A stretch of DNA of 20,000 bases from Malassezia furfur. Taxonomy: Eukaryota. This document shows, piece by piece, positions 1,089 to 19,958 of this stretch (its first letter is position 1; the number at the start of each line of letters is the position of its first letter). A program made the translations under genes and the position numbers. Below the pieces are notes generated by a model, which saw only the letters and a list, made by a program, of their open reading frames with translations, had not been told where the DNA came from and did no database searches. The stretch lies in NCBI GenBank assembly GCA_052055015.1, contig JBQJIT010000015.1. One strand, written 5' to 3'.

Positions 1089-2429
1089 CTAGGTGCGCGT
1101 GTGTCGGTGCGCGAGCCAACGGCCCACCACTTCGAACGAGCCGATCATAATGCCACACGACGGCGCAACCTTGGCAAGGCGCGGTGTCAGGCCACGGAAC
1201 ACGCCTGTCACGCCCTCGGATGCGACGATGCGGCGCAGCGTGCCAAGCATCGCGTTCGTGGGCTGCGGCGCGCCAGGGGGGTATCGGTGGTTGCGTGTCT
1301 GCGTCTCGGCTTGCAGGCGCGTCTTGACGAGGTCAAAGGGATGCGTGAGGAACGCGGCGACGCTCCCGCTCGTTGCGCCCACACCAAACGAGATGCCAAA
1401 CTCTTGCCAAAACGTCGACGTGTGGCTCTCGCCGAAGCCCGCGCCGGTAAACAAGTACTTGCCGCCCTCGTAGCCGGTGAAGTAGATTGCCGAGAAGGGC
1501 ACATCGCGCCATAGCGTCGCAGACAGCCCGCGCCACAGGACGCTAATGCCTTTGGTCTGTACGTCGCGGTACAACGGCTCGAGTACGGAGGCGAACGACG
1601 AGCGGCCATGCGACGCCTGCAGCCGCGTGCGCAGCAGCTCGAGCGGCGTGACGAGCGTCGCGGATACGGAGCGCGACAAAGCGCCTGACACCAGCGATGC
1701 AGCCAGCACCGGCACACGGAACGCGCTCTTCGGCGCCTCGTCCAGATCGTACGGCATGCCCCCGGGAATCTCGGGCATACATATTTCGTTCTCGTCGAAC
1801 ATCGACGGCACCGTCGTGATCGGTGGCGCGTCCAGCGACAGCAGCAGCCGGCGGAACGCGTCGTAGCACGTCATGTACGTCACCTGCGACGGCACCGTCA
1901 TCGCCACGGTCGGCACCAGGCCGCGCCACAGGCCACGCCAGCCTTCGGCGCGCAGCACCTTGACGATACCATCCAGGATGCCGTGCATGCGCTGCTCGTG
2001 CAGCAGCGTTTCGACCTCACACACATGTGGTGTGCACTTGCCGGGGTACACGCACGCTGCCTGTCCGTTGGCCGCGAGCGTCACGGGGAAGGTCGACACG
2101 CGGTACGACGCCGAAGCGCGCGACGACCACAACGAGAGGGAGCTGCGCTGCTGCTGCGCAGGGCACGCATGTATTTCGTGCGCCACGGCACGGGGAGGAG
2201 GCGATGACTCGGTCGGAGCCTCGGCGTATCCAGCGTACCCGAGATCGTGCTGCGTCTGCAGACGGGTCTTAACCACATCCAGCGGCGTCACTGCGTCAGG
2301 AGGTCACGTACTCAGCACAGACGTCGTGAATGCGCCAACAATCGCGGCAATGGCCCGGTCCGTATGTGACATGGTGACATGCACCGGCCCATCGTCCTGG
2401 CCGCCACGCGGCTCGGACTGCTGCGACAT
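1089..2429 (-). CDS. MTM1: Mitochondrial carrier, Mtm1/SLC25A39-40-like; exons 2429-2312 and 2290-1089 (~439 aa)
   Basis: Three carrier signatures are present: PLDVVKTRLQ, PLELLRTRLQ and PFDLVKTRLQ, plus RDVPFSAIYF. The first TM helix (AIAAIVGAFTTSVL) is joined to MTPLDVVK by a 21-nt intron at 2291-2311 (GTACGT...CTGAC GCAG) that contains an in-frame TGA. Confidence 0.85.
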
Positions 2430-2532
2430 GTTCGCGACTGCCAGGGACGCGAACGGTGCGGTGGCGAACATCCGCCGCGGCCTTTTAACGAGCTTATGTA
2501 AGAAGGGCCGCCTCCACCACGCGCCCTGGCTA

Positions 2533-4215
2533 TCAGATAGGCAAATCGGCCCCCGCGGCGCCCGATGCTTCGTCCGATGTCGCCGCGGCGCGCCGCTCGG
2601 CACGCCGCCGGCCCTTGCCTTCGCGCCACTTTTCGTTCTTGGCACTCGCTGAAACGTCGCGTGGGCGGCGCACCATTGGCGTGTACTTGGTCGTAGGGCG
2701 CAGCGCGCCGTTGCCCAGCGGTACAAGCTGAGCACGCGGCGCCTGCGGCGTCACCAGTGTCGGTACCGGCAGACGCGGCGTGCGCGACACCTCGAACGAC
2801 GTGGATGCGGGCAGCGTCGTCGTCGCAGTCGTCGCACTGGCAATCGTAAAGTGACGCAGCAGCTCCGCATGAATCGCCTCGCGCGTCCACTGCGCGTGCA
2901 GATTTGCCGTCGCGCGCAGCGTCGGCGTAAAGTCGAGCGCATCGCTATGCACCGCGTCCATCGCATCGTTCGCACATGCACGCCATTGCACGTCATCCTC
3001 TCGGAAGCCACACTCCCATAGCATCAGCGGGCGGTCCGCGGCCATCTCGTAGCTGGGCTTCGTCTCGTACACAGCCAGCGTCTCGCTCACCTTCGGCAGC
3101 AAACGCAAGCGCGTGTAGCCGGGCGCATCGTCGTCAAGCATTGCGAGCGCCTGTGCCCGGTCGTGTGCCGCAGCCCCCGTATGCACATTCACAAGCTCGT
3201 CCACAATCGACGGGTCCTCGAGGCGCGCACCAACCAAAAACAGTACCGCCATAATGTTGCGCACTTGGTGATACAGGAATGCAGAGCCGCGCAGGTTCAA
3301 CACGTACATCGACTCGGTCGCCTCGGTGTCGGGCATCACCACCGGCAAATCCTGTGCCGTTGGCCACCCGATCGGGACCGCGTCGATCGTCGCGCCATCG
3401 ATGCGGCGAACAAAGTTGGTAATCTGCTTGCTTGCGTCAACTTTGCACAGATTGCGAAAATCGTGCTCACCAAGCAGCCGCGACGCCGCATCGCGCATCC
3501 GTTCCACATCCAGACGATTTGCAAACTGCGAGCCGCTCCCAGGCTGCCAAGCCAGCGCACTCGGCGCTCCTAGCGTGAAAAAGTACTTGTAGTGCCGGTA
3601 GGTACAATCAAAACGCGCAGAGAAATCCGCACGCACCGGCGACCATGCCTGGATCCGGATCGACGGTGGCAAGAGACGGTTGAGTGTCGCGACGTAGGGC
3701 AGTTCCTCACCAGAACTCAGGCGCTCGGGGGCAGGCATCTCAGCAGCGCTCCCCGAAAAGTTTCGCAACGCCCGTTCGTCGACACATCGACTGCGCACCC
3801 ATAACGCAATCACTTGGCCTGCGGCACTCACGCCCGCATCTGTGCGCCCACACCGGCTCCAGCCTGCGCCCTCCATACCCTTTTCCGGGTCCACAAGTCG
3901 CGCCGTACACAGCGCCTCCCAAATCGTCTCTTCCACGGTTGGAAGCGGCGTCACTTGCTGTGTCTGCGCGGCGAGACCCGAATACCGGCTTCCATCGTAG
4001 CAGAATCGCAGTGCAATCTTTCGGCACGGCTGTGCAGAAACATCGAATGGACGTGGCGCTTTGGCTTTGGGCTTGGCCTCCTCAGTCTCTTCCGAAAACG
4101 CGCGCTCGGGTTCTGGCACTGCAAGGTGTGCCGACGACGCCGACGCCTCCAATTGCGCGATTCGTCTCAACAGCTGACTACGGGTCCAGTCACCGTAGCG
4201 CTCGTAGGCGGTCAT
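2533..4215 (-). CDS. PUS3: tRNA pseudouridine(38/39) synthase, TruA family (Pus3/Deg1); an alternative upstream in-frame ATG lies at 4302
   Basis: Catalytic motif CGRTDAGVSA, plus IALRFCYDG, FSARFDCTYRHYKYFF, GEHDFRNLCK and GSAFLYHQVR. Confidence 0.9.
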   Translation of the reverse strand: MTAYERYGDWTRSQLLRRIAQLEASASSAHLAVPEPERAFSEETEEAKPKAKAPRPFDVSAQPCRKIALRFCYDGSRYSGLAAQTQQVTPLPTVEETIWEALCTARLVDPEKGMEGAGWSRCGRTDAGVSAAGQVIALWVRSRCVDERALRNFSGSAAEMPAPERLSSGEELPYVATLNRLLPPSIRIQAWSPVRADFSARFDCTYRHYKYFFTLGAPSALAWQPGSGSQFANRLDVERMRDAASRLLGEHDFRNLCKVDASKQITNFVRRIDGATIDAVPIGWPTAQDLPVVMPDTEATESMYVLNLRGSAFLYHQVRNIMAVLFLVGARLEDPSIVDELVNVHTGAAAHDRAQALAMLDDDAPGYTRLRLLPKVSETLAVYETKPSYEMAADRPLMLWECGFREDDVQWRACANDAMDAVHSDALDFTPTLRATANLHAQWTREAIHAELLRHFTIASATTATTTLPASTSFEVSRTPRLPVPTLVTPQAPRAQLVPLGNGALRPTTKYTPMVRRPRDVSASAKNEKWREGKGRRRAERRAAATSDEASGAAGADLPI

Positions 4216-4323
4216 GATATGCGTTGTAGGGCCAGTAAAGTAACAACGACCTGCGCGAACCCCTCGTACACAAACTCCCCACGCCTTTGGCGCTCGAAGC
4301 ATGCACACCGACCTTTTTCGTGA

Positions 4324-5920
4324 TCACGTGTTGTGGAGTGCACGGTGGAGGATGTCACTTTCTTGCAGCGCGTGGAGGACCACGCTGCAAAGCACGGTGG
4401 ACTCGGCCTGCACGCCCGTTGCGTCATGTTCCAAGATTGCTCCTGCTTCATCATCATGCGTCGCTGCATAGTTGTTTTGTAGGCGCATTGTGCACAGATG
4501 CGCAAGACACTGGCGTGCAAGTGCTGTAGCCGCTGTCGGCTGTCGCTGCTCGACGTCGATGGCCCGTGCGTTAGCAAACACTTGGTTGACCAACAGCGAC
4601 CATCCCTTGATAGGAGTGCTGCGGCAAACAAGTACCGCGCCAACAAAAAAGCGCCACAAGCACCAGCTTATGCGCCCCGTTGCATCGAGGAAGAGCGGTC
4701 GCTGCTGATCGCGTGGGGACTGCAACGATACGAGGGCACTCTCTGCAAACGCCTCCGTCGCCGAGTGCTTGCCCGTGGCATCAACGTGTGTAGGGGTATG
4801 CGTTGAGTCCATTGAAGCCAAAAGCAGGGTCAATCCAGGCGTATGGGTATCTTGTGCGGGTGTGTAGGCCAGAAAGTGGGCTAAGGTACGCTCCAACTCT
4901 CGGCGATCAGAGGGCAAGTCGGGCGACCAACTGCAGCGGTCGTTCAGGGTTTTGCTTCCCAGGACAAACCCATACTGACAAAGAAGCTCGGCATTGCCTA
5001 GCTCTCCATATGTATTGATCAGTTCCTCATCGGTGTCGATTTCCTCAACGCAGCGTACGTCGACCGTGTTGGAAATCGAGGACGATATAACAGCATGGCA
5101 GCTGCCTCGATGCTGCACGCCGCAATACATGCAGACATTTTCCTCTGCTTCGACATGAACATTGTGCATGTCTGTGTGGTTAAACAAGTCCGCAATGGGT
5201 ACCATGCATAATCTGAGTGAGAGTCAACGCACGTACCCATGAAAGACGTTCACCACGAAGGCACGACTCGAAACCAGGGTAAATGCATCCACAAAATTAT
5301 CAAAAGACAACTTGGAACCGATATTCTCCAGGGTGCTAGCACTGTACCGGTCCCAGTATGATTTCAGCCGCCGCTACGTTAGCAGCACACTTACTAAGGA
5401 ACACCCCGGTTTTAGATTTTTGTCGGCATCCCAAAATTGTGAGGCGCGTTGTACGTTGCGCCATGCCTCGGTCCCAACAAACCATACATTGCCTTCCCAG
5501 TGCAGAGGCCAACATAATGGAAGTGAGACATACTGGGGGAGGCTCTGGATGTACCCATAGAATTTTGATGCCTTCCCCAGATGCCGCTCATAGCATAGGC
5601 AAAGTGCCAGGTGGAGCGCATCATCTTTGCATTCTGAAACGGCCATTTTGAAGCTGTCACTCTGACCGAGCGCGCTGCTCCTGGTCGAATAAAGTGCACC
5701 GCTAGGAATCCAGGCCACTGGGTTAATATGCGCGCGTACCGACATCGTTTCGCCCGATTCTTTCTTTCGCGCGCACGGTCCATGCGCCCGGGCTTGCATT
5801 CCATTCAAGGTCTTCATCCATTTCAAGATCTAGTGGCACTTGGACGACCGCTATGCGATCGTCAAGGACCACGCCTTGTTCTTCGCACCATTCCAGCAGA
5901 GTTGCCAAGCGCTGATCCAT
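4324..5920 (-). CDS. SET-domain protein-lysine N-methyltransferase (Rkm/SETD6-like); exons 5920-5740, 5717-5395, 5373-5237, 5212-4324 (~509 aa)
   Basis: Splicing introns 5718-5739 (22 nt), 5374-5394 (21 nt) and 5213-5236 (24 nt) gives a continuous frame. It reads LLEWCEEQGV, YIQSLP, VSSRAFVVNVFHGLCMVPIADLFNH and ELINTYGELGNAELLCQYGF. Confidence 0.85.
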
Positions 5921-5973
5921 TGGTAGGAGCGGGGTATGTGGAGGCAAATGGGCACATTTTCGTAGCTGCGACC

Positions 5974-6417
5974 ATGTCGTCAAGTAAGACCGTGTATATT
6001 GGTGCGTGTTCGGCTTAATGTACAGGCGGAATCGACAAGGACACAACCGAGGAACTCCTCTACCAAGCTTTTGTGACCTTCGGCGAGATTAGTGACATTC
6101 AGCTGCCACGCGTCTCGGAAGGGGGTAAGTTTTCGACACTCACGCAGCATCCGCAAACCGTGGGTTTGGCTTCATCACTTTCTCCCAAGAAGAAGAGGCC
6201 GAGGACGCGATCGATAACATGCACCTAAACGAGTTCCGTGGCGTACGTTTAGATCTAATACAGAACGTCATTACGGTCAATGCAGCGAAACCCCACAAAA
6301 TTCAGACCGCCGATCCCTGGCGACCTATTTGGGAGACCGAGGTACGTTTCGACACCAACGCAGGAATGGATCAAAGAATACGGGGCCACACATAAGAGCG
6401 AAGATGATACTCGGTGA
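5974..6417 (+). CDS. Small RRM protein resembling the N-terminal RRM of cyclophilin E (Cyp33/PPIE), without a PPIase domain; exons 5974-6001, 6026-6124, 6148-6242, 6264-6341, 6364-6417 (~117 aa)
   Basis: Not in the ORF track. The spliced product is MSSSKTVYIGGIDKDTTEELLYQAFVTFGEISDIQLP...NRGFGFITF...AEDAIDNMHLNEFRGNVITVNAAKP...RPIWETEEWIKEY. It has RNP2 (VYIGGI), RNP1 (RGFGFITF) and a Cyp33-like PxW...W tail. There are four GT-AG introns of 24, 23, 21 and 22 nt. Confidence 0.85.
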
Positions 6418-6462
6418 TATGGTGATAGTGTTGCACAGGTGGTATACTATCGATTATGGATA

Positions 6463-7237
6463 TTACAGAAGGCGATGGATATTGTCATTCTCCAGGTCCA
6501 CCAGCGTCTTGGCATCGTACTTTCCATCTTCACGCGGCTGGTCGAGAAGCCTCTGCCACCACTTGAACAAGAACTCGTTCACGATGAGCTTGAACCACGG
6601 CGTGAAGGCCGACGCTGGGTGAGTAAAAAACGTACGATCCAGTTCGTTCATGAGTGTCTTGAGCTCCTCCATCGAGACCCACTTCACGTCACACACTTCA
6701 TTAGGGTTCACATTGAGCGTAACAGGTGTGGTCAAGAAAAGGATATAGTCGACTGTGGTCAGTCGGACAAAGCAACACACCTTCGTGTTCACCCCACAGC
6801 CCATCACTAGGCGCCATGTAATGGATGCGCGTGAGGAACTGAATGTCTTTCACATTTACTTGGTCCAAAGCAATGCCGAGTTCATGCTCGAGCTTCCGCC
6901 GCGCTGCGTTTTTGGCACCCTCCTTGCCGTCTAGTTCGGAACGCACCGCCAGCGGGTGAGAGCAGCAGGTGTTCGTCCACATATTGGGGAACGTGATTTT
7001 CTCCAGAGCACGGCGCTGGAGGAGCAACTTGCCCGTCGACGGGTCGAAGAGGAACATGGAGAACGCGCGATGCAAGAGGCCCTCGCGAATGTTGGTCATC
7101 AGGTGGCACTCTTTCTTGCTACCATCGCGCACATAATTGTCGTCGTTGTCCACCACAATGCAGCGCTCCTCCATGAGGCGGATCTGCTCCTCATCATGTC
7201 CCTGAAGAGAGACGTCTTCAGCTGGCGCACCGTTCAT
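6463..7237 (-). CDS. IDI1: Isopentenyl-diphosphate delta-isomerase type I; exons 7237-6781, 6752-6636, 6614-6463 (~241 aa)
   Basis: Motifs [22 protein letters not shown] and FTPWFKLI are present. WGEHE|VDYILF is restored by the 28-nt intron at 6753-6780. A second, in-frame 21-nt intron at 6615-6635 is probable. Confidence 0.93.
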
Positions 7238-7340
7238 GATCGCGAATCCTTCGTGAGAACGTCGTGCCGTAATCAGGCGAGGTGAATGTCACGTGCATCC
7301 ACGGTATGTGTCGTGCGCGCCTAGGCTCACCTTCCTAACC

Positions 7341-8296
7341 ATGGCGTCGAGCACGGACACAATTGACGTCCATCCCTGGGTCCATCCTGAATTTCGGCCC
7401 GGAGATGTCGATAAAATTATCTCGGATGTTGGTGCGTTTTTAGCTAATGCCTAGATCGTTACAACCCCCAAAACCGCGGCGTCCTGTTGGAATACCTCAA
7501 CACACAACTGAAGAACGGGACATACGACGCCTTGCCAAACTTGGCCATCCTGAAACTGTACGTACCACACCAAGCCGGCACCCAGGATGAAATTTTTTTT
7601 GTCAGTTGTGAGCGTTGTGGACTCGAGACCCACGCGCGCAGGACGTCTTGTTATTAGCTCTAGCTGAGGCCGCTGGTTGTTTTGCCAAGGACATGCTGAC
7701 CACAGCTTCCAACTCAACCCGAACGAGTTCGATTTTGATACCGCTATATATATCCTGGTTAAAGCGCTTATGGCCGTGCCGTTTGCCGACTTTAGCCTCT
7801 GCATTTCGCTCTTGGGCGAAGCCCCTGTCGCTACGCTCACGGCGAACGACAGCGCAAAGAGTACCGGCGCGTCGGGTATCATCATCGAGCCTGTCATCGC
7901 GCATCTTTCCACTCTCTCGACTCTGCTTTTTGAGGCTAAATTCCGCGACTTTTGGTCGTTCTACCAAAGCGCCGAGTTTGCTGACGTTCGTTCATATACC
8001 AGCAAAGCACATGGGTTTGAGGATGCCGTGCGAAAGATGGCTCTCGACAGCGTCCAAAGTACCTTTCGAACCATTTCGACGGAGCGCCTTGCAAGCTACC
8101 TTAACATGCCCGTGGCAGACCTGGAAACCTTCCTTGGGAAGCAGGCCGGGTGGTCTATCTCCAACGGGACTGTTCACGTACCAAAAAACCCAGAGAACGA
8201 CGTGAAGCCCTCCGTGGCCCGCGAGGAGATTTCGCTAGAGAGTACGTGGTACCACACTGACAGTTAGACTTGTCCAAATTACTGGCGCAGGCATAG
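7341..8296 (+). CDS. EIF3K: Translation initiation factor eIF3 subunit K; exons 7341-7431, 7455-7557, 7706-8241, 8268-8296 (~252 aa)
   Basis: The spliced product has VDRYNPQN...YDALPNLAILKLFQLNP...LVKALMAVPFADFSLC. Introns are 7432-7454 (23 nt), 7558-7705 (148 nt) and 8242-8267 (26 nt), and all exon phases are consistent. Confidence 0.88.
7581..7669 (+). ncRNA. Intronic box C/D snoRNA, probable SNORD44/U44-like guide for 18S rRNA (human Am166-equivalent)
   Basis: Lies within eIF3k intron 2. C-box variant AGGATGA at 7584-7590 and D box CTGA at 7664-7667. The adjacent 12-mer TATTAGCTCTAG (7652-7663) is the exact complement of the conserved 18S sequence CUAGAGCUAAUA. There is an imperfect flanking stem (ACCAAGCCGGC / GGCCGCTGGT). 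Confidence 0.75.
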
Positions 8297-8322
8297 CACA
8301 TCTGTAGAAATTATATTTACGA

Positions 8323-9294
8323 TCATGAGGAGACGCGCCATGTCCCGAGACACTCGATGTGTGCCTCGGTATCCGCACTACGCATGACCTTAGCCAGGAA
8401 CGAGGTCGGGTGAGGGGGTATCGAGGTGGTAGTGTGGTCGGACGGCTTGCATGTAAGCTCAACTAAGAGCAATGGATGTCCGTGGGCTGTCGTGGGCACG
8501 ACGTTGACGATATGCCATCCCGCAGCATCTTGGCCTGCAACTTGCATGAAGAGCATACACTCAAGTGTCGTGCTGATTCGATACATTGTCCGTACGGCAT
8601 CTTGACTTGTTCCCTGCCGGGAGCGGTAGGCCTGCATCAGCGCCGCGACATGGGCATCCCTTGGGTTGCACGTCGCAACAACAAAGCGCGTCGTGTTTTC
8701 TGCGTGAGCATAGGTAGGCATACCGTTGGAGTTTTGGATCCCTCGGACTAGGACTTGTGCGTTACTCAGTTCTGCTGCAAGCTCCGAACCAATGGCCGCG
8801 TCCATGTCGGACTGCAGAAGAGCGACGGCCTCAGCCGTCGACGGAGCTTCCTCGCGCGCCGCATGTGGCAGACGCTTTGCGAGGAACTGGGAGCATTGCC
8901 CGAGCGCCTGGGGGTGACTACGGACCACACGCAGGTTGCCAAGTTGGGCTGTGACATCATGCGAAGCTTGCCGAACGATCAGCGCGTGCGCAATACGCAA
9001 GTCGACTTCCTCGACGATCTTGAGTGCATGGGGCCCAAATGTGGCCTCATCGCCCAGGCAGGCAAACGTCTCGAGCACGGGCCCCTGCACGCTGTTGCTC
9101 AGCGGCACCACCACGACGATCGAGTGCGGGGCACGCGGGGCCGGAGCGATGCCTGCCTGCACAGCCGCGTGGATGGAAGGATGGGCGTGCAGGGTCACCG
9201 CATTTCCGCATGCAAACTGCCGCGCCGCCTGGTGTGAATAGGTCCCGAGCGGCCCCAGAAAAGCGACGCTGACGGTATCCGCTGGGACCTCCAT
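8323..9294 (-). CDS. PHA2: Prephenate dehydratase; probable exons 9294-8724 and 8699-8323 (~315 aa)
   Basis: Motifs VAFLGPLGTYSHQAA, SHPQALGQC, STAEA and NTTRF are present. Removing the 24-nt GTATGC...CTCAC GCAG segment at 8700-8723 restores the consensus spacing IQNSNENTTRF. Confidence 0.88.
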   Translation of the reverse strand: MEVPADTVSVAFLGPLGTYSHQAARQFACGNAVTLHAHPSIHAAVQAGIAPAPRAPHSIVVVVPLSNSVQGPVLETFACLGDEATFGPHALKIVEEVDLRIAHALIVRQASHDVTAQLGNLRVVRSHPQALGQCSQFLAKRLPHAAREEAPSTAEAVALLQSDMDAAIGSELAAELSNAQVLVRGIQNSNGMPTYAHAENTTRFVVATCNPRDAHVAALMQAYRSRQGTSQDAVRTMYRISTTLECMLFMQVAGQDAAGWHIVNVVPTTAHGHPLLLVELTCKPSDHTTTSIPPHPTSFLAKVMRSADTEAHIECLGTWRVSS

Positions 9295-9719
9295 GCTGGT
9301 TGTACCCACGGCTTGGATGTGGGCGTTACTCGGCGCACGCGCCAAGACCGGCCGACACGTGCGTGCCAGTGCCGATCCATCCAGATCGGCATATCACGTG
9401 CAAATGTATGTGCGGAGGGGTTGCGGGATGGGGTAAATGGGGCGGAATGTAGGAGGGAAAGTGCATTTTTGTGCAGGAGACGAATCACATCCGTTGGATC
9501 GATATGCGCCGATCATGAAAAACCTGCATGCGATTCGCGATGCACCTTCCTGGCGGCTGCATTTGCGGCGCCAGGACATTCCTTGTAAATCACGGGGTCG
9601 CAGCTGCGGAAAGACTGGGATGCGCGCCAACCTCATAATAATGGCCCGCGTCGCCTACTGATTCCCTTCACCCCGGCCACGACTTGCGCACCTAGTGTTC
9701 TCTGCAGCGTCCATCCGCA

Positions 9720-11621: not shown

Positions 11622-13247
11622 ATGCGTATCACCATCCCTCTTCTTTCGCTCTTTCTCCTGGCCGCGTCCAACGTCTTTGCTGGTCCGGTTGCTAGCAAGT
11701 ACGAGACAGGCATTCCCATCAGCCTTCAGCGCCGTGCACGCTTCGTTAGTGCCAACGGCCATGTGAACCTCGTTGCTCTGACCCGTCATTACAAGGGGCT
11801 CGACAACAAGTACTCCAAGAGCCTCGAAAACTACCGTCGCAACACCGGCCACAAGCACCCTCTGCAAGCGCACCGTCACAAGAAGCGCGAGCACCCCAAG
11901 CACGGCCACGGTCACCCAAACCGCAGCCGTGACAAGAGCCGCAAGGATGGTTTCGGCGGCGCAGGCGGCGGCATGGGCGGCGGTGACTGCCCTGACCTGT
12001 GTGGCCCTGACGGCGGCATGGGCGGCGGCATGGGCGGTGGCATGGGCGGTGGTATGGGTGGAATTCCCGACGGTGGTTCAAGCCCCAGCTCGCCGAGCAG
12101 TTCGGGTGGTGGTTCGGGCGGCTCGCCGAGCGGTTCGGGCAGCGGCTCGGGCGACCCGCCGAGCGGTTCGGGCAGCGGCTCGGGCGGCTCGCCGAGCGGT
12201 TCGGGCAGCGGTCCGGGCAGCTCGCCGAGCGGTTCGGGCAGCGGTTCGGGCAGTGGCTCGGGCAGTGGCTCGGGCAGCGGCTCGGGCAGCGGCTCTGGCT
12301 CAGGTGGCTCCGGTGGTGGATCGGACGGCAGCTCGGTCAGCCTTACTGATGTCGCCAATGAGCAGCTGTGGGCGGGAGACATCACGTTTGGTGGACAGAC
12401 GTTTGGTATTGACTTTGACACGGGTTCCGCAGACACTCTGGCGAACCCAAGCGCCTACGACCCTCATAAGTCCGATACGGCGCAGAACACTAACCAGCCG
12501 TTCCAAACCTCGTACGGCGATGGCACGGCAGCCGAGGGCACCATTTGGACCGACTCATTCCAGATTGCTGGTTTCAGCGCGGAGAATGTGGCCATTGGTG
12601 TCGCGACCCAAGATTTTATCACGCCCGACCAGCAGCCCAGCCAGGGGATTAGTGGCATGTCGTTCCCTTCGCTGCAGGCTTTCCCTAAGGAATACCCTCC
12701 CTTCTTTGAGTCGCTGCGTCAGCAAAAAGTCGTGAACCAAGGCGTATTCCAGTTTACGCTCAAGGCTGGTGAGGGCTCTGAGCTGCACCTCGGTGGTGTT
12801 GACCAGTCCAAGGCTCAGGGCGACTTCAACTGGGCCACGGTGGACCCGTCGCAAGGCTTTTGGGTCACCGATGCGGCGATCAATGGGCAGCAAATTAAGG
12901 CGATTATTGATTCGGGCTCGACCATCATTTCGGGTCCCACTGACGAAGTCGGCGCGCTGATGCAGACCATCCCCGGCGCCACGCCTTCGCCCCAGGATGG
13001 CGCCACTGCGTACCTGTACGACTGTGATAAGTCGCCCGACTTGACGATCACTGTCGCTGGCCTTGATGTACACCTTTCGCGGGACCAGATGCGGTTCGGT
13101 CAGACGCAGGGCAAGTGCATGCTTCCGATCATGGGTCTGGACGGAATTCCTCTGAACGCGTGGATTGTGGGTGACACACTCTTCCAGGCAACGACCATCG
13201 TCTTTGACATGGATGAGAACCGTATGGGCTTCGCCTTGCAGGCCTAG
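11622..13247 (+). CDS. Secreted aspartyl protease, family A1 (acidic paralogue) with a Gly/Ser-rich insert before the catalytic domain
   Basis: Signal peptide, HKKR dibasic site, DFDTGS and IIDSGS catalytic motifs, SYGDG flap and WIVGDT. The catalytic domain is collinear with that of 9720-10901. Confidence 0.93.
   Translation: MRITIPLLSLFLLAASNVFAGPVASKYETGIPISLQRRARFVSANGHVNLVALTRHYKGLDNKYSKSLENYRRNTGHKHPLQAHRHKKREHPKHGHGHPNRSRDKSRKDGFGGAGGGMGGGDCPDLCGPDGGMGGGMGGGMGGGMGGIPDGGSSPSSPSSSGGGSGGSPSGSGSGSGDPPSGSGSGSGGSPSGSGSGPGSSPSGSGSGSGSGSGSGSGSGSGSGSGSGGSGGGSDGSSVSLTDVANEQLWAGDITFGGQTFGIDFDTGSADTLANPSAYDPHKSDTAQNTNQPFQTSYGDGTAAEGTIWTDSFQIAGFSAENVAIGVATQDFITPDQQPSQGISGMSFPSLQAFPKEYPPFFESLRQQKVVNQGVFQFTLKAGEGSELHLGGVDQSKAQGDFNWATVDPSQGFWVTDAAINGQQIKAIIDSGSTIISGPTDEVGALMQTIPGATPSPQDGATAYLYDCDKSPDLTITVAGLDVHLSRDQMRFGQTQGKCMLPIMGLDGIPLNAWIVGDTLFQATTIVFDMDENRMGFALQA
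12012..12300 (+). repeat. Coding tandem repeats: ~4 x 12-nt (GGGM), 5 x 33-nt (SPSGSGSGSGG-like; starts 12089, 12122, 12155, 12188, 12221), then a (GS)n run
   Basis: The unit CTCGCCGAGCGGTTCGGGCAGCGGYTCGGGCRG recurs, with a few substitutions, at an exact 33-nt period. Confidence 0.9.
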
Positions 13248-13685
13248 GCAAGCCTCCCCGTGACATAAATCTGTTTCCCGTTGTGCGGCCTAGAGGTCGC
13301 CTCCTTTCCATTCTAGTTCTTGTTTAGTTTCAATTGATGGGAAATTTTTCTTTCGTTCGTTGAATCAGAGATATGAAAAGGGTTTAGCATGCGGAATGTT
13401 TTGAACTGCGTATTGCCTCACATAATAGAATGCATGGGCCGTGCATCGACATCATTCAGCGCCCGAGTGCTCGACGATCATGGCAACGTGGTGGACGGTC
13501 AATCACCTCCACTTCATTTTGTGTCTAGAGGCACGTGCGCAGATCTGTTGCGCGGGCGCCTGGCGATCATTGCGACGTAACTCGCCGATTGAGGGGTCTG
13601 ACCTTGTCCAACAAAATTTTGTGCTAAGAATTTAATTATACTCGCATTGGACATTCTGTGCAATCCTTGGCATTGCACTGCCAAA

Positions 13686-15122
13686 TCATGAGCTTTCGTC
13701 ACCGTCGTCGATGGTGTGCGCTAGCGCGTTCACGATGGCATCGCTGACGGCGGCGGTCCCTTTGCGCTGGGCACGAAGCACCTCGCTGATCATAAACGCA
13801 ATATCCAGAGACTGTTCATAGTTCAGGCGAGGGTCGCAGTACGTCAGGTATCGCCTCGAGAGATCTTCCTCCGAAAGCTCCATGCTTCCTCCGATGCACT
13901 CTGTCACACCCTCGTCGCCTGTCAGCTCGAGGTGCACGCCGCCCAAGCGACTTTCCTCCTCGGCATGGATCCGAAGCGAGCTCGTGAGCTCCTTGACGAT
14001 GTCACTAAACATGCGTGTCTTGATGCTCGGGTTCAGCGGCGATGAAATCGTATTGCCATGCATAGGATCGCAGCACCAAATGACCAGACCATTGTGCTGC
14101 GAGTTCTTCACCGCACGGATGTGCGCCGGAAGTAGGTCGTTGATCTTTTTCGCGCCGTAACGCGAAATTAGCGTCACGCGCCCTTTTTCAAGGTCGGGGT
14201 TGACAATGTCCAGGATCCGAATGAGGTCCTCGGCAGACATGGACGGACCCACTTTGATGCCGATGGGGTTACGGATGGACCGGAAGAACTCGACGTGGGC
14301 GCCGTCCGGCTGGCGCGTGCGGTCGCCGAGCCAAATTGTGTGGGCAGACAGGTCGTAGGGCCCCTGTTCCGTGTCGCGCGTCAGCACATTTTCGTATTCG
14401 AGCATCAGCCCTTCGTGGCTCACAAAGTAATCCACAGTGCTGAGTGCATTGCTGGCGTGCCTGCCAGGGTCAGCTCCGACTGTCTTCATAAAGTCAAGGG
14501 TATCCACGATACTGTCCGTAATGCGCGCAAATTCTCGCTGTAGGTACTCCGACTGCACATGGTGGAAACTCCAGGCATGCGGGGCATGCAAATCGGCGTA
14601 GCCGCTCGAGATCCAGCTCCGAACATAGTTAAGCGTTGCAGCCGAGTGGAAGTAGGCAGACAAGAGCCTTTCCGGGTCCGGCTCGCGCTCATCCAGACCA
14701 AGACCGTTCACATTGTCGCCGCGGAAGGAGAGGACGGTGCGCTTCTCGCCGTTAGGCAGCTCTACCACCTCGGTCGGCTTGCTGCGTGGCTTTGCGTACT
14801 GCCCCGCAATACGCCCAATCCGGACAACTGGAAGGCGCACGCCATGAATAAGAATCAGCGACATTAGAAGCGTCAGCTTCAACTTGGCTTCGATCTGTTT
14901 GGGATTGCAATACGAAAACAGCTCTGCACAGTCGCCACACTGCAGAAGGAAGGCATTGCCGTCAGCAACCTGCGCCATCTGCTCACGCAGCCGGTCAATT
15001 TCCACAGGAGTAACGAGGCCAGGGAGCGACTCCAGCTGGCCCAGCACTCGCTTCAAATGCGCTTCATCTGTGTATTTGACGTCCTGCTCGATCCTCTTCT
15101 CGCGCCAGGAATCTTTGCCCAT
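13686..15122 (-). CDS. DAHP synthase class II (AroA-II type), ~478 aa from MGKDSWR
   Basis: Motifs LLQCGDCAELF, GRIAGQYAKPRS, SHEGL, WLGDRTRQ, NPIGIKVGP, CDPMHGNT, GGVHLELTG and CDPRLN. The ORF-track extension to 15338 starts at a non-ATG codon and overlaps COG3, so I placed the start at ATG 15122. Confidence 0.93.
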   Translation of the reverse strand: MGKDSWREKRIEQDVKYTDEAHLKRVLGQLESLPGLVTPVEIDRLREQMAQVADGNAFLLQCGDCAELFSYCNPKQIEAKLKLTLLMSLILIHGVRLPVVRIGRIAGQYAKPRSKPTEVVELPNGEKRTVLSFRGDNVNGLGLDEREPDPERLLSAYFHSAATLNYVRSWISSGYADLHAPHAWSFHHVQSEYLQREFARITDSIVDTLDFMKTVGADPGRHASNALSTVDYFVSHEGLMLEYENVLTRDTEQGPYDLSAHTIWLGDRTRQPDGAHVEFFRSIRNPIGIKVGPSMSAEDLIRILDIVNPDLEKGRVTLISRYGAKKINDLLPAHIRAVKNSQHNGLVIWCCDPMHGNTISSPLNPSIKTRMFSDIVKELTSSLRIHAEEESRLGGVHLELTGDEGVTECIGGSMELSEEDLSRRYLTYCDPRLNYEQSLDIAFMISEVLRAQRKGTAAVSDAIVNALAHTIDDGDESS

Positions 15123-15169
15123 CTCGACGTTGCTCGCCACGTGTGACTCCACTCCGTCCTGGGCGCGAA
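15123..15169. promoter_or_regulatory. 47-nt divergent intergenic region (DAHP synthase / COG3) containing CACGTG (15138-15143) directly followed by TGACTC (15144-15149)
   Basis: The motifs are seen directly. Their function as bHLH and bZIP sites is inferred. Confidence 0.4.
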
Positions 15170-17739
15170 ATGAGCGGGGAAGCGTCAGTGCCGGATGCGC
15201 CCTTCTCCCTGGAAGACTGGTACGCGAATCTGGCACCACTGGAAGAGGTGCAGCGGCTCTCAGTGAGCCGAGTTTCTGCTTGGTCTTCGGAACAAGCAGA
15301 GCAGACCGAAGCGCAGGCCGACGAACAGCGTCCCCCAACGCCCACGCTAACGGCCTTTCTGGACTCGCTCGCTGCCGAGATTCATGCCACCGAGGACACG
15401 CACTACGATGCAGAAATCTCGGTGCTTAAAGAAACCATTGGTGAGCTTGATGCTCTACTCGAATTTATCCATGCGGTACAAGTCAATATGAAAGAACTGC
15501 GCGATGGTCTTGCCTTTGTTGAAACCGATGCGCAGGAATTGCTGGAGCAGGCCGAAGACATGATGAAGGATCACGCCAAACTGGAGGAGCTACACAAGCA
15601 GATTACTCTACGCCTCTCCTACTTTGCTGTGCTACCTCAAGCGTCGTCCCTCGCGTCGTCTTCGTCCTTGGACATCGTCCAACAACCTGCATTTTTGGAC
15701 ATGCTAAAGCGCCTGGAACTCGCGTTACAGTTCATGAACACCCATCCCCACTATACCGAAGCACACCTGTACCAAATGCGGATGGGGCACTGTGTCGTCC
15801 GCATGATGGATTTGGTCCGCGTACAGTTTACCAAGCACGGTGCTGACTGCGCCGACAAGGGACTCGCTCGGTTGCCCGAGGCTAACCACATTCGAGATTT
15901 TACCTCGGACACTGGGACGCTGAACCTTGACTCTGACCTGGTGAATGAAGCGCTTTACGGCGACTTTACGGCGCTGCTGCATACATTCCGCCCGCTTTTC
16001 GCCCAGATCGAGACGTTGGAAGAGCCCATGCACGCGTCCACGTCGGCGGTCCTGGATGACTATCGACAAACAATGGCCCAATGTCAGGCCACATTTGTGC
16101 GCTGGCGCTCTGCCCTGGTGAAAGAGCTTCTGCGGATGTTTTTGAACGACCATGCGCGACGAATGGAGAAGGAAGCGGAACTTCCGCTGCAAACGTCGGC
16201 CGCACAAGCGGCGGCATTTGTACATGGTGTCGCGCATCAGGAAGTGGCCTTGTATACGGCCTTCTTCCGTATGTCGGTGGATTCGCGAAATGCGGTCCTA
16301 GCTTCTCCTTTGGCCCATTTCTTGCATGACGTGGGGGAGCAGCTGTGGACGTTTTTGGCAACCAAACTTACAGCGAATGCCAGTATGGGTATGATTTCGG
16401 AGCTGTGTTCGCTCTTTCATACGGTACCTGCACCGACGGATCGCTCGGCGCTTCTTTCCCCGCGGGACGAGACAACACTTGACTTGACACAGCAGCACCA
16501 ACTGGCGCTTCTTTGGACTCAGCCCGTTCTCCAAGAACTGTGCAAGCGCCTTGTACAGAAATCACAAGCTACGTTAAAGATGGACATTGTCAACTTTACG
16601 CCCAAACAAAGCGACCTCATGTATCCACAATGTCTTTCGGACCAACGCACGGTGCTGGGAGAAGAGCAAGCAGTGCTGGCGGAAGCGACCCATGGGAGAC
16701 TGATGCGGCATTCCAAACGTGCCTCCATGGTTGGTGCAGGGCTCCTGGGGTCGCTAGTGGGCACCGATGGACAAGCAGTTGCTCTCTTTGCCAAACCCAC
16801 CCCAGCGGTATACAGTTCCTGGTATGCGCCGGTTCGCACAGCGCTGGATCTCTTGGCAATTTTGCATACTCATATTCCCTTGGCCCTGCTCACGGAGCTC
16901 GGGGTCCAGATTATCGAGGCAGCGCAGGCCGCCGTCCAACGTGGTGCAACTCTGCTGCAAGAAGGCAAATTCGGATCAGAAGACAGCGGAGTTGGGACGG
17001 CCGACGGCGTTTTGTTTCAGTTGCGCCATCTGTTTGTTCTTCAAGAGCTGTATTATTCCTTGGATATCGCCTCCCGCTCAGCGCACAGCCAGACGGTCAA
17101 CAATTCGAACCAGATGGAGCTGACGGCGCAGGAAAAACACCTGTTCGGTGTCAAGGTGGTTGACCCCAAACTCATCCTCGACGCGATCAATTCGGTCTGG
17201 AGCGCATCCAGCTTTCTTGCGCGTGGAAGCTCGGTTGTTCAACCTACGCCAGAAACGGTTGCGTCCGATGGCACGAGACTGTCACCGCTGGAGGCATCTC
17301 GGTTGCGGCTGGAGAAGAACATGGTGGCAACGTCACGGAAGACGAGCGAACTGTTTGCCTCTAATTTGGCCCTTCCACTCCAAATCTTCATGGCCCAAAG
17401 CAATCGGCAGTCGAATACTATCGATGAAACCAAGGCGCTGGCTGCGTACACCACATTTCAACAAAGTATGGATGTGAATTTGGATGAGATGCGGGACAAG
17501 CTTTCTTTGTACATCAACGACGAAACAACCGCTGCCAACATCCTGGACTCTGCCATTGTACGTCATTGTACTGACCAAAGACCTCGACTTTGACTTTTTA
17601 CGAGGCTTATTTGAATCGTGCACTGAGCTTGTTGCCTCGCGAAGCAACCGGCGACGCAGCCGCGCAACTGCGTGGTCTCCCTAAGCCAGGTGACCTGAAG
17701 GAAGAGCTATTACAGCGCTTGCAGCCCATGCGCATATAG
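15170..17739 (+). CDS. COG3: Conserved oligomeric Golgi complex subunit 3 (Cog3/Sec34); exons 15170-17557 and 17581-17739 (~848 aa)
   Basis: N-terminal coiled coil followed by FMNTHPHYTEAHLYQMR, DIVNFTPKQSDLMYP, WYAPVRTALDLL and DGVLFQLRHLFVL. A 23-nt intron at 17558-17580 (GTACGT...CTGAC CAAAG) opens a 52-codon terminal exon. Confidence 0.8.
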
Positions 17740-17779
17740 ACCCTGTGTACTATACGACTCATGGCTACAGCATAGTCAG

Positions 17780-19659
17780 CTATTCATTCTGAGTCTTGGT
17801 CGTATCCTCGCTCGCCAACTTCTTGTGGGGAGGAGTGTCGGGCGGTGACGCCTTGCGCTTAAGCGTTGTCTCTTCTTCCATCTTTACCATCTCGGCGCTC
17901 GGATTGTCGACGGAAGGAAGAGGGTCATTGAATGCCGGCACGTCCGTAGCTGCTGTGGCAGACTCGGATTGAGAGGAAGAAGTCTGGACCGGTTCTTCTT
18001 TCACGCTCTCTGACATGGTCTTGGCCGAGTAATGGCAAGACGCATGCACATAAGCATTGTCCAAAGCCATGGCATTCTTCCAAATCCACTCCTCGAGATC
18101 TTCGCTCCATTCGCTCTGGAATTTTTCTTTGCAGATCCGGCACGGCATCGCTGCAACCTCGGGATCTTCGGGCACCACAACATACGTGCTCGCGAACTTC
18201 TCCCTCAGCGCTTGTTCTTGAACAGGCGTAATGCCAGTGCCGGCGTCGTCGCCGTAAGTGGGGTCACTCACGTCGTCGAACCCGCTACGAATCCAGCGTG
18301 GTACAGGGTCGAACCAGGAGCGACTTTGACCACGCGCAATGCTCGCACGAGAGCGGCGATTCTGCGAGAAGTGCCAGTCTAGATGCAAGTCTAGCCCATT
18401 TTTGCCGGCTTTGGTGTCGGGGTATCGGTTTGCACATTGACGGCAGGGTAACGGCAGGTTTTCTTTGATCACCAGTTCGACCTCGGGAGGTGGGCGCGAC
18501 AGGTCATAGGTGGTTAGTCGAAGATCAAGCGATAGAATGTAGTCGGTGTATTGTCTGTCTTGACTTAGACGTGGGGGGTTCGTAGCTTGGACCACCGCCG
18601 GCGTCGAAGGCGTCGGCGTGGAAGCGGATGGCAAAAGACCCGCTTTCATCAGGTTGGCAATTAGCTCAGACGCCGACGGTGCACCCTCTGTGGGCGAAGA
18701 CGCCACAGGCGCTGCTGCGGGCGCGGGCGCGGGCGCGGGGACAGGCGCGGGTGTACCATGCGCCGAGCGCGTGTCGCTAGGTCGCTTTGAAAGCACATCC
18801 AGCTCACGCTGCACCTCGGCCAGAAGCTCTGGTCTCGGCTCCATCCCCTGCACCTTGTCTTTCAGTTCGCGAAGGACATTGATACGATCCAAGACGGATG
18901 GATCGTGAGGATTCCTAGAGCGTTCCTGCGTTTTAAGTGCAAGGAGGCGCTCAATGTTCGCCAGCAACTGCGACTGTGTCGGCTGCGATGACGAGGCCTT
19001 GGGCGTAGGGCCCTGACTACCAAACAAGGAACGTTCAATCGTCCATTGCGGCCCCTCGCCGAACAAAGGGCCACCCCCCGGTCCTGCTGCACGCCATGTG
19101 GCAAGCAATTCTTCCATGCGCCTCTTGGTGGGTTGGTCCACCACGCGGTAAGATTCAAGGAAGAGTGTTGCCACGCGTGGCGCCCAGAGTTCGGTGTAGG
19201 GTGAGCCAATGTTCTTGCAAATTGAATCCATCAAGTACATCGACGGTAACCGAAGTGGCGGTGGTGACTATCCTGGTTAGCGGCCCGCCAAACGCTATCA
19301 TACATTATACGTACCATGATGATATGTGTGTCAATAAGCTTGGCCACCAACGTAGACATGCGGTGCACATGCTCCTGAGCAATAAGCGTCAGGTTAGTGA
19401 TGATGGGCTTCGAGTTGAACGTGAGTTGCGCCAGCTGCCCACGGTACATGCGCTCGAAGGCAGCCGGGTTCGAGAGCGACGCCGATGGATCGTGAGGCGG
19501 CGCGCCACCAACATAGCCACCTGGGCCGGGCGTCGCTACCGGATACGAGGGAGTTCCACTACCATACCCGGGAGCTGCTGGCGCCCCGTACTGATTGAAC
19601 CCATAGCCGTACGACTCAGACCCATTCGCTGACGGATATGCGTATGAATTTGGATACAT
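17780..19659 (-). CDS. PCF11: mRNA 3'-end cleavage/termination factor Pcf11; exons 19659-19315 and 19267-17780 (~610 aa)
   Basis: CID domain LTFNSKPIITNLTLIAQE...RLPSMYLMDSICKN. Zinc fingers CRQCANR...HLDWH and CRICKE...HASC flank the Clp1-binding QSRSWF motif. One 47-nt intron at 19268-19314. Confidence 0.92.
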
Positions 19660-19841: not shown

Positions 19842-19958
19842 ACGATTACAGCAGGATCATGGGCACTTCGCGCGTCGTCGCTCTTCTCTACCCATCTCGG
19901 CGCTTGCGCAAGGTGTGTTCACGCCTGTGACGCTCTCTAACCTTTCAGACTATCCGTG

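Follow-up and report, generated by a model that had tools for sequence, protein, structure and literature searches.

Sixteen predicted GT-AG introns, most of them 21 to 28 bases long, in eight housekeeping genes of a Malassezia yeast

In the window analysed here (the whole stretch of DNA, 20,000 nucleotides), 16 tiny GT-AG introns, mostly of 21-28 bases, appear to interrupt eight housekeeping genes of a Malassezia yeast, a picture that sequence comparison confirms in part. The existence of these introns is supported because their excision restores reading frames and homology. With a probability of about 0.85, we regard them as spliceosomal introns of the ordinary U2 type (GT-AG), reduced to near minimal size in a compact genome, and not as the products of a different machinery.

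Results

All 16 segments start with GT and end with AG on the sense strand, at the positions proposed in a preliminary description of this DNA, whose lengths and median of 23 nt agree with our recount: four introns are 21 nt long, two 22, three 23 and three 24, and the remaining ones are 26, 28, 47 and 148 nt (mean 32.4 nt). Their G+C content is 51%. Excising them yields eight uninterrupted ATG-to-stop frames, and the tally for the window is 16 introns for 13 genes. A frame shift or an in-frame stop is found in 13 of the introns. The other three (6243-6263, 6615-6635 and 8700-8723) are stop-free and of a length divisible by 3, and we judge them to be putative introns on homology gaps against distant relatives only.

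Homology, and not motif counts, is the main support for the predicted introns. The claim that the introns restore conserved proteins was borne out directly for 14/16, through collinearity from exon to exon or through a gap over the intron-encoded residues (for 6615-6635, within them), and indirectly for 17558-17580. It did not extend to 6342-6363, the least secure of the set, for which the basis is splice signals and a codon score only. Many of the Malassezia relatives compared are themselves predicted with introns and are partly non-independent; the independent comparators are Ustilago-like raw ORF calls and PDB chains. Relatives also have introns at the same sites, with lengths, read from read-through insertions, of 21, 21, 24 and 27 nt, none being below 21 nt.

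The mitochondrial-carrier gene (CDS 2471..1089, minus strand) contains a single 21-nt intron, 2291-2311, with the donor GTACGT, a CTGAC branch motif whose A lies at +16, a tail of 5 nt after this A, and a stop in frame. The spliced product is collinear over the junction with four of five aligned relatives (P0042, P0043, P0159 and P0173), the fifth starting past the junction, and exon 2 matches Mito_carr at 8.6e-61. Three introns are predicted in the SET-like gene (CDS 5920..4324, minus strand). The first, 5718-5739 (22 nt, GTACGC, TTAAC with A at +17, 5-nt tail), brings stops and a frame shift; P0035 and P0037 are collinear at its junction, and in P0033 a read-through insertion of 7 aa occupies the exact site. 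The second, 5374-5394 (21 nt, GTAAGT, CTAAC with A at +16, 5-nt tail), holds an in-frame stop and again coincides exactly with a 7-aa insertion in P0033, the collinearity with P0035 being approximate, in a stretch of low conservation. The third, 5213-5236 (24 nt, GTACGT), also holds an in-frame stop and has an ambiguous branch, the A being at +13 in TTGAC or at +19 in CTCAC; P0035, P0036 and P0037 are contiguous at the junction, and P0033 carries an 8-aa insertion.

Four introns are predicted in the PPIE-like RRM gene (CDS 5974..6417, plus strand). Intron 6002-6025 (24 nt, GTGCGT, TTAAT with A at +17, 7-nt tail) holds an in-frame stop. Residue 2 of exon 2 is position 6 of the RRM_1 profile, so the first strand of the domain must derive from exon 1 and the split codon, and exon 2 begins at residue 12 of the PPIE chain 2kyx_A. 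Intron 6125-6147 (23 nt, GTAAGT, with a tie between CTCAC, A at +18, and TCGAC, A at +12) shifts the frame. It separates RRM_1 positions 6-33, in exon 2, from positions 38-66, in exon 3, and these two exons match PPIE residues 12-39 and 46-72, with a loop that differs by one residue. When the stop-free intron 6243-6263 (21 nt, GTACGT, CTAAT with A at +16, 5-nt tail) is read through, the alignment with PPIE (7zev_A) opens a gap of 7 residues precisely over the intron-encoded ones. The last one, 6342-6363 (22 nt, GTACGT), has tied branch motifs as well, CCAAC with A at +17 and TCGAC with A at +11. The final exon, of 17 codons, had no PDB match, and a weak indication comes from its codon score, +1.5 if spliced and -6.1 if read through.

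The eIF3k gene (CDS 7341..8296, plus strand), the product of which has M. furfur eIF3k as its closest named protein (83% identity), contains the only long intron among its three. Intron 7432-7454 (23 nt, GTGCGT, CTAAT with A at +16, 7-nt tail) brings a stop and a frame shift, and its junction is ungapped in all of the relatives that cover it (7/8, from Malassezia, Ustilago and others), P0009 ending before it. Intron 7558-7705 (148 nt, GTACGT, CTGAC, 6 nt after the branch A) brings stops and a frame shift, and the spliced protein is collinear with 8/8 relatives; the ORF calls of four Ustilago-like relatives lose similarity slightly upstream of the junction point. This intron gave no match in Rfam, and its predicted fold is nothing unusual (z = +1.0). 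At intron 8242-8267 (26 nt, GTACGT, CTGAC with A at +19, 7-nt tail), an AG lying 2-3 nt past the branch A is skipped: the C-terminal exon fits seven of eight relatives only with the intron ending at 8267, P0009 diverging past the junction. Ustilago-like raw ORF calls are contiguous at this site, and P0008 has a 9-aa read-through insertion there.

Two introns are predicted in the isopentenyl-diphosphate isomerase gene (CDS 7237..6463, minus strand). At 6753-6780 (28 nt, GTGTGT, CTGAC with A at +22, 6-nt tail), exon 1 reaches residue 154 of human IDI1 (2icj_A), the split codon provides residue 155 and exon 2 continues from residue 156, which makes the junction exact. Reading through the stop-free 6615-6635 (21 nt, GTACGT, CTCAC with A at +16, 5-nt tail) produces, against human IDI1, a 5-residue gap within the stretch that holds the seven intron-encoded residues, which is consistent with a predicted intron and is not residue-exact (five against the expected seven). 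In the prephenate dehydratase gene (CDS 9294..8323, minus strand), read-through of the likewise stop-free 8700-8723 (24 nt, GTATGC, CTCAC with A at +19, 5-nt tail) gives an 8-residue gap against 7alz_A precisely over the intron-encoded residues, immediately before the conserved TRF motif.

In COG3 (CDS 15170..17739, plus strand), where intron 17558-17580 (23 nt, GTACGT, CTGAC with A at +17, 6-nt tail) lies close to the 3' end, the ORF calls of 4/4 relatives (99-52% identical) lose similarity exactly at the donor, reading V-R and then stopping 5-11 codons past it. A search for relatives of the last exon found none; its score of +6.8 in the spliced frame exceeds that of every intergenic window and of 96% of 800 off-frame windows. 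The Pcf11 gene (CDS 19659..17780, minus strand) contains intron 19268-19314 (47 nt, GTACGT, CTAAC, 9 nt after the branch A), which also skips an AG, 3-4 nt past the branch A. Residues 72-100 of exon 1 correspond to residues 12-40 of the yeast Pcf11 CID (1sz9_A) and residues 3-81 of exon 2 to its residues 57-135, the two exons being collinear with this structure to within one residue.

The splice signals are compact throughout. Donors are GTACGT (nine introns), GTAAGT and GTGCGT (two each), and GTACGC, GTGTGT and GTATGC (one each), and 3' ends are CAG in 11, TAG in four and AAG in one. A YYNAY motif with its A 5-9 nt from the 3' end is present in 16/16, against a chance expectation of about 0.13 per intron, and the 5-9-nt tail leaves no room for a pyrimidine tract, in agreement with the 6-nt donor, the branch motif and the lack of such a tract previously described. 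Among the 14 short introns, the spacer between donor and branch site measures 12 nt in the 28-nt one and 6-9 nt in the other 13. In the two introns where an AG is found soon after the branch A (2-4 nt), 8242-8267 and 19268-19314, homology favours the farther AG both times. A loose motif scan gave 26 matches against 17.3 ± 4.9 in 200 shuffles, which is not significant. A strict scan (donor, branch and AG within 21-30 nt) gave 12 against 3.2 ± 2.0, with a maximum of 10 in 300 shuffles; 11 of these 12 matches are introns of the preliminary description. No strict-donor candidate of 12-20 nt came up, except for one nested within the 24-nt intron.

Discussion

In the reading that we prefer, a short intron would consist of just about three signals: a GTRMGT-like 5' splice site of 6 nt, a YTNAY-type branch site, and a 3' splice site that is probably the first AG at least 5 nt past the branch A (YAG in 15/16 introns, AAG in one). 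Excision would be performed by the normal spliceosome via intron definition, as we infer from the canonical signals and from published RNA-seq of a sister species. Most likely, the accumulation of introns at 16 nt from 5' splice site to branch and at 5 nt from branch to 3' splice site corresponds to the shortest spacing that the spliceosome of this lineage tolerates; it does not indicate that this spliceosome is altered.

An origin of the breaks in assembly errors or pseudogene lesions has no specific point in its favour and is close to excluded: all 16 have GT..AG with donor and branch motifs, and breaks or insertions occur in relatives at sites that include the three SET-like ones, that of 8242-8267 and the COG3 donor. 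Nor does it seem at all probable that some of 6243-6263, 6615-6635 and 8700-8723 are retained, wholly or sometimes, to encode insertions of 7-8 residues. Their stop-free lengths in multiples of 3 and the read-through of comparable segments by ORF callers in relatives (P0033, P0008) speak for retention, but the gaps against PPIE and prephenate dehydratase lie exactly over the intron-encoded residues (the five-residue IDI1 gap lies within them) and all three segments bear full donor, branch and AG signals.

The position of the branch bears on two further alternatives. Branch sites are predicted from motifs, and candidate branch As were compared by their pairs to the U2 branch-recognition sequence, which may differ in this organism. 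The predicted distance from the 5' splice site to the branch is 16 nt, its minimum, in 5/16 introns, and that from branch to 3' splice site is 5 nt, again the minimum, in 9/16; the four 21-mers combine both, as had been described. The accompanying statement that no branch A lies before +16 holds only if the weak motifs CTCAC and CCAAC count as branch sites; by pairing with the U2 sequence, an A at +11 to +13 is equal or better in 4/16: in 5213-5236, A+13 makes 5/6 pairs against 3/6 for A+19, and in 6125-6147, 6243-6263 and 6342-6363 an A at +11 or +12 ties with the chosen one (four pairs against four in 6125-6147 and 6342-6363). Lariats of 11-13 nt are thus possible. It is conceivable, if doubtful, that the floor is on total intron length and not on lariat size, the upstream YYNAY being the real branch in introns with a weak proximal motif (CTCAC, CCAAC), with lariats of 11-13 nt and 9-11 nt from branch to 3' splice site. 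In favour of this, besides the better pairing in 5213-5236 and the ties in 6125-6147 and 6342-6363, a second upstream YYNAY is found in 5/5 short introns with a weak proximal motif against 1/9 with a strong one (Fisher p = 0.003). Against it, the proximal site pairs better with the U2 sequence, which is not taken from this genome, in 6615-6635 and 8700-8723 (5/6 against 4/6 upstream), and a proximal YYNAY lies at 5-9 nt in every intron. Less probable still is the proposal of the preliminary description, a hard lariat limit of about 16 nt at which U1 and U2 cannot co-occupy the intron, so that assembly would be rerouted or the U1/U2AF set reduced. The chosen branch A is indeed never earlier than +16, 5-nt tails are frequent, strict-donor candidates of 12-20 nt are confined to the nested one, and the lengths in relatives do not fall below 21 nt; but the sample comprises the 16 introns of a single window, the branch is ambiguous in four of them, and donors are near consensus (GTACGT, GTAAGT or GTGCGT in 13/16), which does not suggest relaxed recognition of the 5' splice site.

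Stentor coeruleus also argues against such a limit. Its 15-16-nt introns form lariats of 10-11 nt and leave a tail of 5 nt, and the U1 core proteins, almost all proteins of U2 and the two U2AF subunits were found there by BLAST (PMC9505925); the question of a steric clash has also been put forward in print before. Therefore 16 nt is not a general geometric floor, tiny introns alone do not imply factor loss, and a reduced or rerouted spliceosome is not implied for Malassezia, so that this part of the earlier proposal is not supported. The introns of Stentor and those of the window share ultrashort length, GT-AG ends and a minimum tail of 5 nt after the branch A. They differ in lariat size, which in Stentor is 10-11 nt and here, for the predicted branches, 16 nt or more (11-13 nt with the upstream motifs), in composition, 75.6% A+U in Stentor against 51% G+C here, and in lineage, Stentor being a ciliate and not a fungus.

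Within the genus, ultrashort introns are a known phenomenon, because the curated set of M. sympodialis already has a mean length of 30 bp, with 5350 introns in 4493 genes (1.19 per gene), 99% of them backed by RNA-seq (Zhu et al. 2017, PMC5389616 Table 2). The mean of 32.4 nt and the 16 introns in 13 genes found here are alike, for a window from another Malassezia species than M. sympodialis or M. restricta. Table 1 of the M. restricta sources (PMC6473144, PMC9241646) gives a median of 30, a review mentions 'very short introns', and Malassezia annotators lowered the minimum intron length to 10-20 nt (PMC5389616 among sources). The novelty first supposed is hence partly forestalled. In the portions of the M. 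sympodialis and M. restricta literature consulted, lengths appear as means, a median and a cumulative plot (Fig. S8), with no analysis of branch position, lower limit or spliceosome.

Introns below 30 bp are listed for ciliates, Microsporidia, Dicyemida and myxozoans, the latter with medians of 22-27 bp, in a 2026 survey (PMC13644364) among whose listed exceptions Malassezia is absent (0 occurrences). The introns of our window resemble those of ultrashort-intron lineages in their canonical GT-AG ends, in the compactness of the genome and in a median length between the low and the mid 20s, and the preliminary description had rightly placed spliceosomal-type introns of 21-24 nt, in a Malassezia organism, within this range. 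Paramecium and the chlorarachniophyte nucleomorphs are further lineages with introns under 30 bp. Unlike parasites with a reduced spliceosome, Malassezia is a basidiomycete that is free-living and can be cultured and transformed.

Sixteen segments predicted to be U2-type introns

The preliminary description had proposed 16 introns in the window, from 2291-2311 to 19268-19314, and the coordinates and lengths that it gave held at every one; read in the sense direction of the host gene, 16 of 16 segments open with GT and close with AG. The extended 5′ splice-site consensus (GTRNGT-like) is followed in 13 of them, with GTACGT (nine introns), GTAAGT (two) or GTGCGT (two) as the donor, and GTACGC, GTGTGT and GTATGC occur once each. 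Acceptors are CAG (11), TAG (four) or AAG (one), and in every intron a YYNAY motif places an A 5-9 nt before the 3′ end, for which the chance level is ~0.13 per intron. The G+C content of the introns is 51%, against 58% for the window. Removal of the 16 segments leaves eight unbroken ATG-to-stop frames. Thirteen segments shift the frame or carry an in-frame stop, and the flanking exons can therefore be joined only by removing them; 6243-6263, 6615-6635 and 8700-8723 have a length that is a multiple of three and contain no stop. On the DNA evidence, the 16 segments are predicted to be spliced as U2-type (GT-AG) spliceosomal introns, and at least 15 of them are correctly placed.

A loose splice-motif scan of the window gave 26 matches against 17.3 ± 4.9 in shuffles; as this is not significant, the scan was dropped as evidence. 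A strict scan, requiring a GT[AG][AC]GT donor, a branch-like motif and an AG within 21-30 nt, gave 12 matches against 3.2 ± 2.0 (maximum 10 in 300 shuffles), and 11 of the 12 coincide with proposed introns. The twelfth match, 9359-9384 (+, 26 nt), falls in the gap that separates the prephenate dehydratase gene from the first aspartyl protease gene; it may be a 5′-UTR intron or may have arisen by chance. The case for the introns rests on homology.

By eye, a 36-nt GT..AG segment at 19913-19948, with a GTGTGT donor, CTAAC and CTTTCAG, is seen in the right-end gene fragment, upstream of an ATG at 19958, and may be a 5′-UTR intron. In the RRM gene, introns 2 and 4 (6125-6147 and 6342-6363) are identical at 19 of 23 positions and have the interior run TTCGACAC in common, outside the splice signals; no other of the 91 intron pairs is as alike (interior alignment score 7, median -2), and the likeness could come from intron duplication or from a common second motif.

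Host and gene content

Judging by protein identity, the host of the window is a Malassezia species, because the named relatives of its eIF3k are closest there: identity over the large exon is 83% for M. furfur, 67% for M. japonica, 57% for M. globosa and 44-47% for Ustilago and its allies. The base composition ranges from 51 to 66% G+C, and the 20 kb hold 13 closely packed protein genes and a gene fragment at the right end; no tRNA genes were found in the window. Pfam matches identify, on the forward strand, a CitMHS transporter fragment (3-1058), a PPIE-like RRM protein (5974-6417), eIF3k (7341-8296), two aspartyl proteases (9720-10901, Asp 1e-47; 11622-13247, Asp 4e-46) and COG3 (15170-17739). 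On the reverse strand they identify a mitochondrial carrier (2471-1089), a pseudouridine synthase (4215-2533), a NUDIX-fold isopentenyl-diphosphate isomerase (7237-6463), prephenate dehydratase (9294-8323), class-II DAHP synthase (15122-13686) and Pcf11 (19659-17780). A gene at 5920-4324 (-) has no Pfam match and was labelled SET-like by eye from its sequence.

The aspartyl protease genes form a tandem pair, and in the second a long Gly/Ser-rich low-complexity stretch (~11950-12330) precedes the protease domain. Only 47 nt (15122-15170) separate the start codon of DAHP synthase (-) from that of the divergent COG3 gene (+), which shows how compact the genome is. Most intron-dense is the RRM gene, with four introns in a 354-nt coding sequence; its product is RRM-only, without a downstream cyclophilin domain, and among its best structural matches several are to the RRM of the spliceosome-associated protein cyclophilin E (PPIE).

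Homology across the splice junctions

Homology directly supports 14 of the 16 introns and indirectly supports one; one is supported by its signals only. When the spliced eIF3k protein was aligned with eight relatives, the alignment was gap-free at the first junction in seven, at the second in all eight and at the third in seven; one relative, P0009, has a truncated N terminus and diverges past the third junction. Raw Ustilago-like ORF calls, which are independent of intron annotation, are contiguous across that third junction. Relatives of the SET-like gene are collinear at all three junctions, and one of them (P0033, 84% identical) has insertions of 7, 7 and 8 residues exactly at the three intron sites, which are read-through translations of 21-, 21- and 24-nt introns. 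In the mitochondrial carrier, the first helix comes from exon 1, and the junction is collinear in four of five aligned relatives, the fifth beginning beyond it.

For the RRM, isomerase, prephenate dehydratase and Pcf11 genes, exon and read-through sequences were compared with PDB chains. In the RRM gene, RRM_1 profile positions 6-33 fall in exon 2 and 38-66 in exon 3, and the same exons match residues 12-39 and 46-72 of human PPIE (2kyx_A) with a one-residue loop difference. Profile positions 1-5 must be supplied by exon 1 and the split codon, a stretch that reads like an RNP2-type strand when set against the RNP2 consensus. Reading through 6243-6263 opens a seven-residue gap exactly over the intron-encoded residues. 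The last exon of this gene (17 codons) returned no matches in a PDB search, and its codon score (+1.5 in the spliced frame against -6.1 in read-through) weakly favours splicing of 6342-6363. The isomerase exons leave a single residue of human IDI1 (2icj_A) between them, exon 1 reaching residue 154 and exon 2 starting at 156, so that the split codon fills 155, and read-through of 6615-6635 gives a five-residue gap at the expected place. In prephenate dehydratase, translating 8700-8723 produces an eight-residue gap that coincides exactly with the intron-encoded residues and immediately precedes the conserved TRF motif. The Pcf11 exons match residues 12-40 and 57-135 of the yeast CID, collinear within one residue.

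The homologue search for COG3 gave only ORF-style calls that end inside the intron, so that the homology support for this intron is indirect. In four of four such calls, similarity ends exactly at the donor, followed by V-R, a stop 5-11 codons past the donor and unrelated tails. The 52-codon last exon has a codon score of +6.8 in the spliced frame, which exceeds 96% of 800 off-frame windows and lies above every intergenic window (maximum 2.1). A look-up of this exon in the ESM Atlas gave no informative cluster. Metagenome scans for orthologous DNA in which exons and introns could be compared (one single-protein query and one alignment query) confirmed no relative.

These comparisons also bear on annotation. 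Public ORF-based protein collections hold translated Malassezia introns: besides P0033, the eIF3k relative P0008 contains a nine-residue insertion, and the COG3 relatives P0038-P0041 end inside the intron, with tails after the donor. Such entries from relatives can mislead homology searches, and the Malassezia genome of the window has to be annotated with the minimum intron length set to about 20 nt or less. The default minimum of 21 in STAR would produce a floor at 21 on its own.

Branch position and the length floor

Counted from the 5′ end, the A of this YYNAY motif, taken as the branch A, lies at position 16 in five introns, 17 in four, 18 in one and 19 in three, and in the others at 22, 38 and 142; it is followed by 5 nt in nine introns, 6 in three, 7 in three and 9 in one. 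Both the 5′SS-to-branch and the branch-to-3′SS distances thus pile up at their minimum. Two introns skip an AG that follows the putative branch A by only 2-4 nt (8262-8263 and 19274-19273), and in both homology backs the farther AG (eIF3k and Pcf11). Because these two AGs are skipped and 9 of the 16 introns have exactly 5 nt after the A, our results suggest a minimum branch-to-3′SS distance of 5 nt.

The position of the branch A is ambiguous in 4 of the 16 introns. Pairs were counted with an assumed U2 branch-recognition sequence that may differ from this genome's; with it, the chosen A is uniquely best in 11 of 15 scored introns, the 148-nt intron being left out. By the same assumed sequence, an A at +13 in 5213-5236 beats the chosen one at +19 (five pairs against three), and in 6125-6147, 6243-6263 and 6342-6363 the chosen A is equalled by one at +11 or +12. 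Among the short introns, a second, upstream YYNAY accompanies a weak proximal motif (four CTCAC and one CCAAC) in five of five, against one of nine for a strong one (Fisher p = 0.003). These ties and losses in U2 pairing, together with the upstream motifs, leave room for lariats of 11-13 nt. Of the hard 16-nt lariat floor put forward in the preliminary description, the pile-up of both distances stands, and the branch call beneath it is ambiguous in a quarter of the introns (4/16); we regard the floor as a reasonable hypothesis built on few introns.

A broader version would make this a two-sided, genome-wide minimum in Malassezia, with at least 16 nt to the branch A, at least 5 nt after it and 21 nt in total, U1 and U2 not occupying the intron together, and splicing sequential or U1-light. 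We consider this unlikely. If it were true, ~4 unpaired nt would separate the 5′ splice-site helix from the U2 branch helix, U1 and U2 would be unable to sit on the intron together, and a culturable, transformable fungus would be available as a model for tiny-intron splicing, in which the shortest intron that a near-standard spliceosome handles could be probed. M. furfur and M. sympodialis have reportedly been transformed (PMC5654937).

The only long intron is 7558-7705 (148 nt), the others being 21-47 nt. Short motifs resembling boxes C and D were seen in it by eye. A snoRNA or other RNA inside it was rejected, with no Rfam match at E <= 10 and a fold no more stable than that of shuffles (z = +1.0).

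Ordinary or altered spliceosome

From the size of the introns the preliminary description had moved to a modified assembly route or a reduced U1/U2AF factor set, and the closest mechanistic precedent runs contrary to that step. Reduced or U1-less spliceosome systems exist, Cyanidiales being a reported example. Stentor coeruleus, as described in PMC9505925, has introns of 15-16 nt that form lariats of 10-11 nt with a 5-nt tail, so 16 nt is no general geometric limit. BLAST in that account found U1-70K, U1A, U1C, Prp39, nearly all U2 proteins and both U2AF subunits, and tiny introns hence do not imply a reduced factor set; its authors propose that branching factors close to the active site have changed, rather than that U1 or U2AF was lost (PMC9505925). 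With U1 and U2AF proteins kept in this closest precedent, the proposed rerouted or reduced spliceosome is in our estimate unlikely. The reading that we favour, with a probability of about 0.85, is that the introns would be ordinary U2-type introns at the minimum spacing tolerated by the lineage.

Comparison with known systems

Seven of the 16 introns have a length that is a multiple of three (~5.3 expected), and three of these seven are without an in-frame stop. In Paramecium, stop-free introns of this length class are depleted, in connection with translational control of intron retention. The 16 introns of the window differ in showing no sign of such depletion, in a sample small enough for a weak bias to be possible.

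Within the genus, short introns are well documented. The curated M. sympodialis annotation of Zhu et al. 2017 lists 5350 introns (mean 30 bp) across 4493 genes, with RNA-seq support for 99%; TopHat and Cufflinks were given an intron range of 10-2000 bp, and the length distribution is in its Fig. S8 (PMC5389616). For M. restricta, annotation was run with the minimum intron length set to 20 and to 15 (PMC6473144), the median intron is listed as 30 (PMC9241646, Table 1), and a review mentions 'very short introns' in Malassezia genes (PMC7426719). The architecture of the window (mean intron length 32.4 nt, 16 introns in 13 genes) matches the published one (~30 bp mean, ~1.2 introns per gene). Pervasive tiny introns are thus documented for the genus, and the novelty claimed for them, which was to lapse if they proved already documented for this species, is removed in part.

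A 2021 study of fungal introns counts M. sympodialis as intron-poor (PMC8476143). The lineages that a 2026 survey names for introns <30 bp are ciliates, Microsporidia and Dicyemida (PMC13644364); Malassezia is missing from that list, although its 30-bp mean has been published since 2017 (PMC5389616). Our literature search found no paper analysing branch-site geometry, length floor or spliceosome of Malassezia and none on its splicing factors, and a genome-wide Malassezia analysis that maps the branch points would add to this modestly but genuinely. In one respect the introns of the window resemble those described for Stentor (PMC9505925), as both keep a minimum of 5 nt after the branch A.
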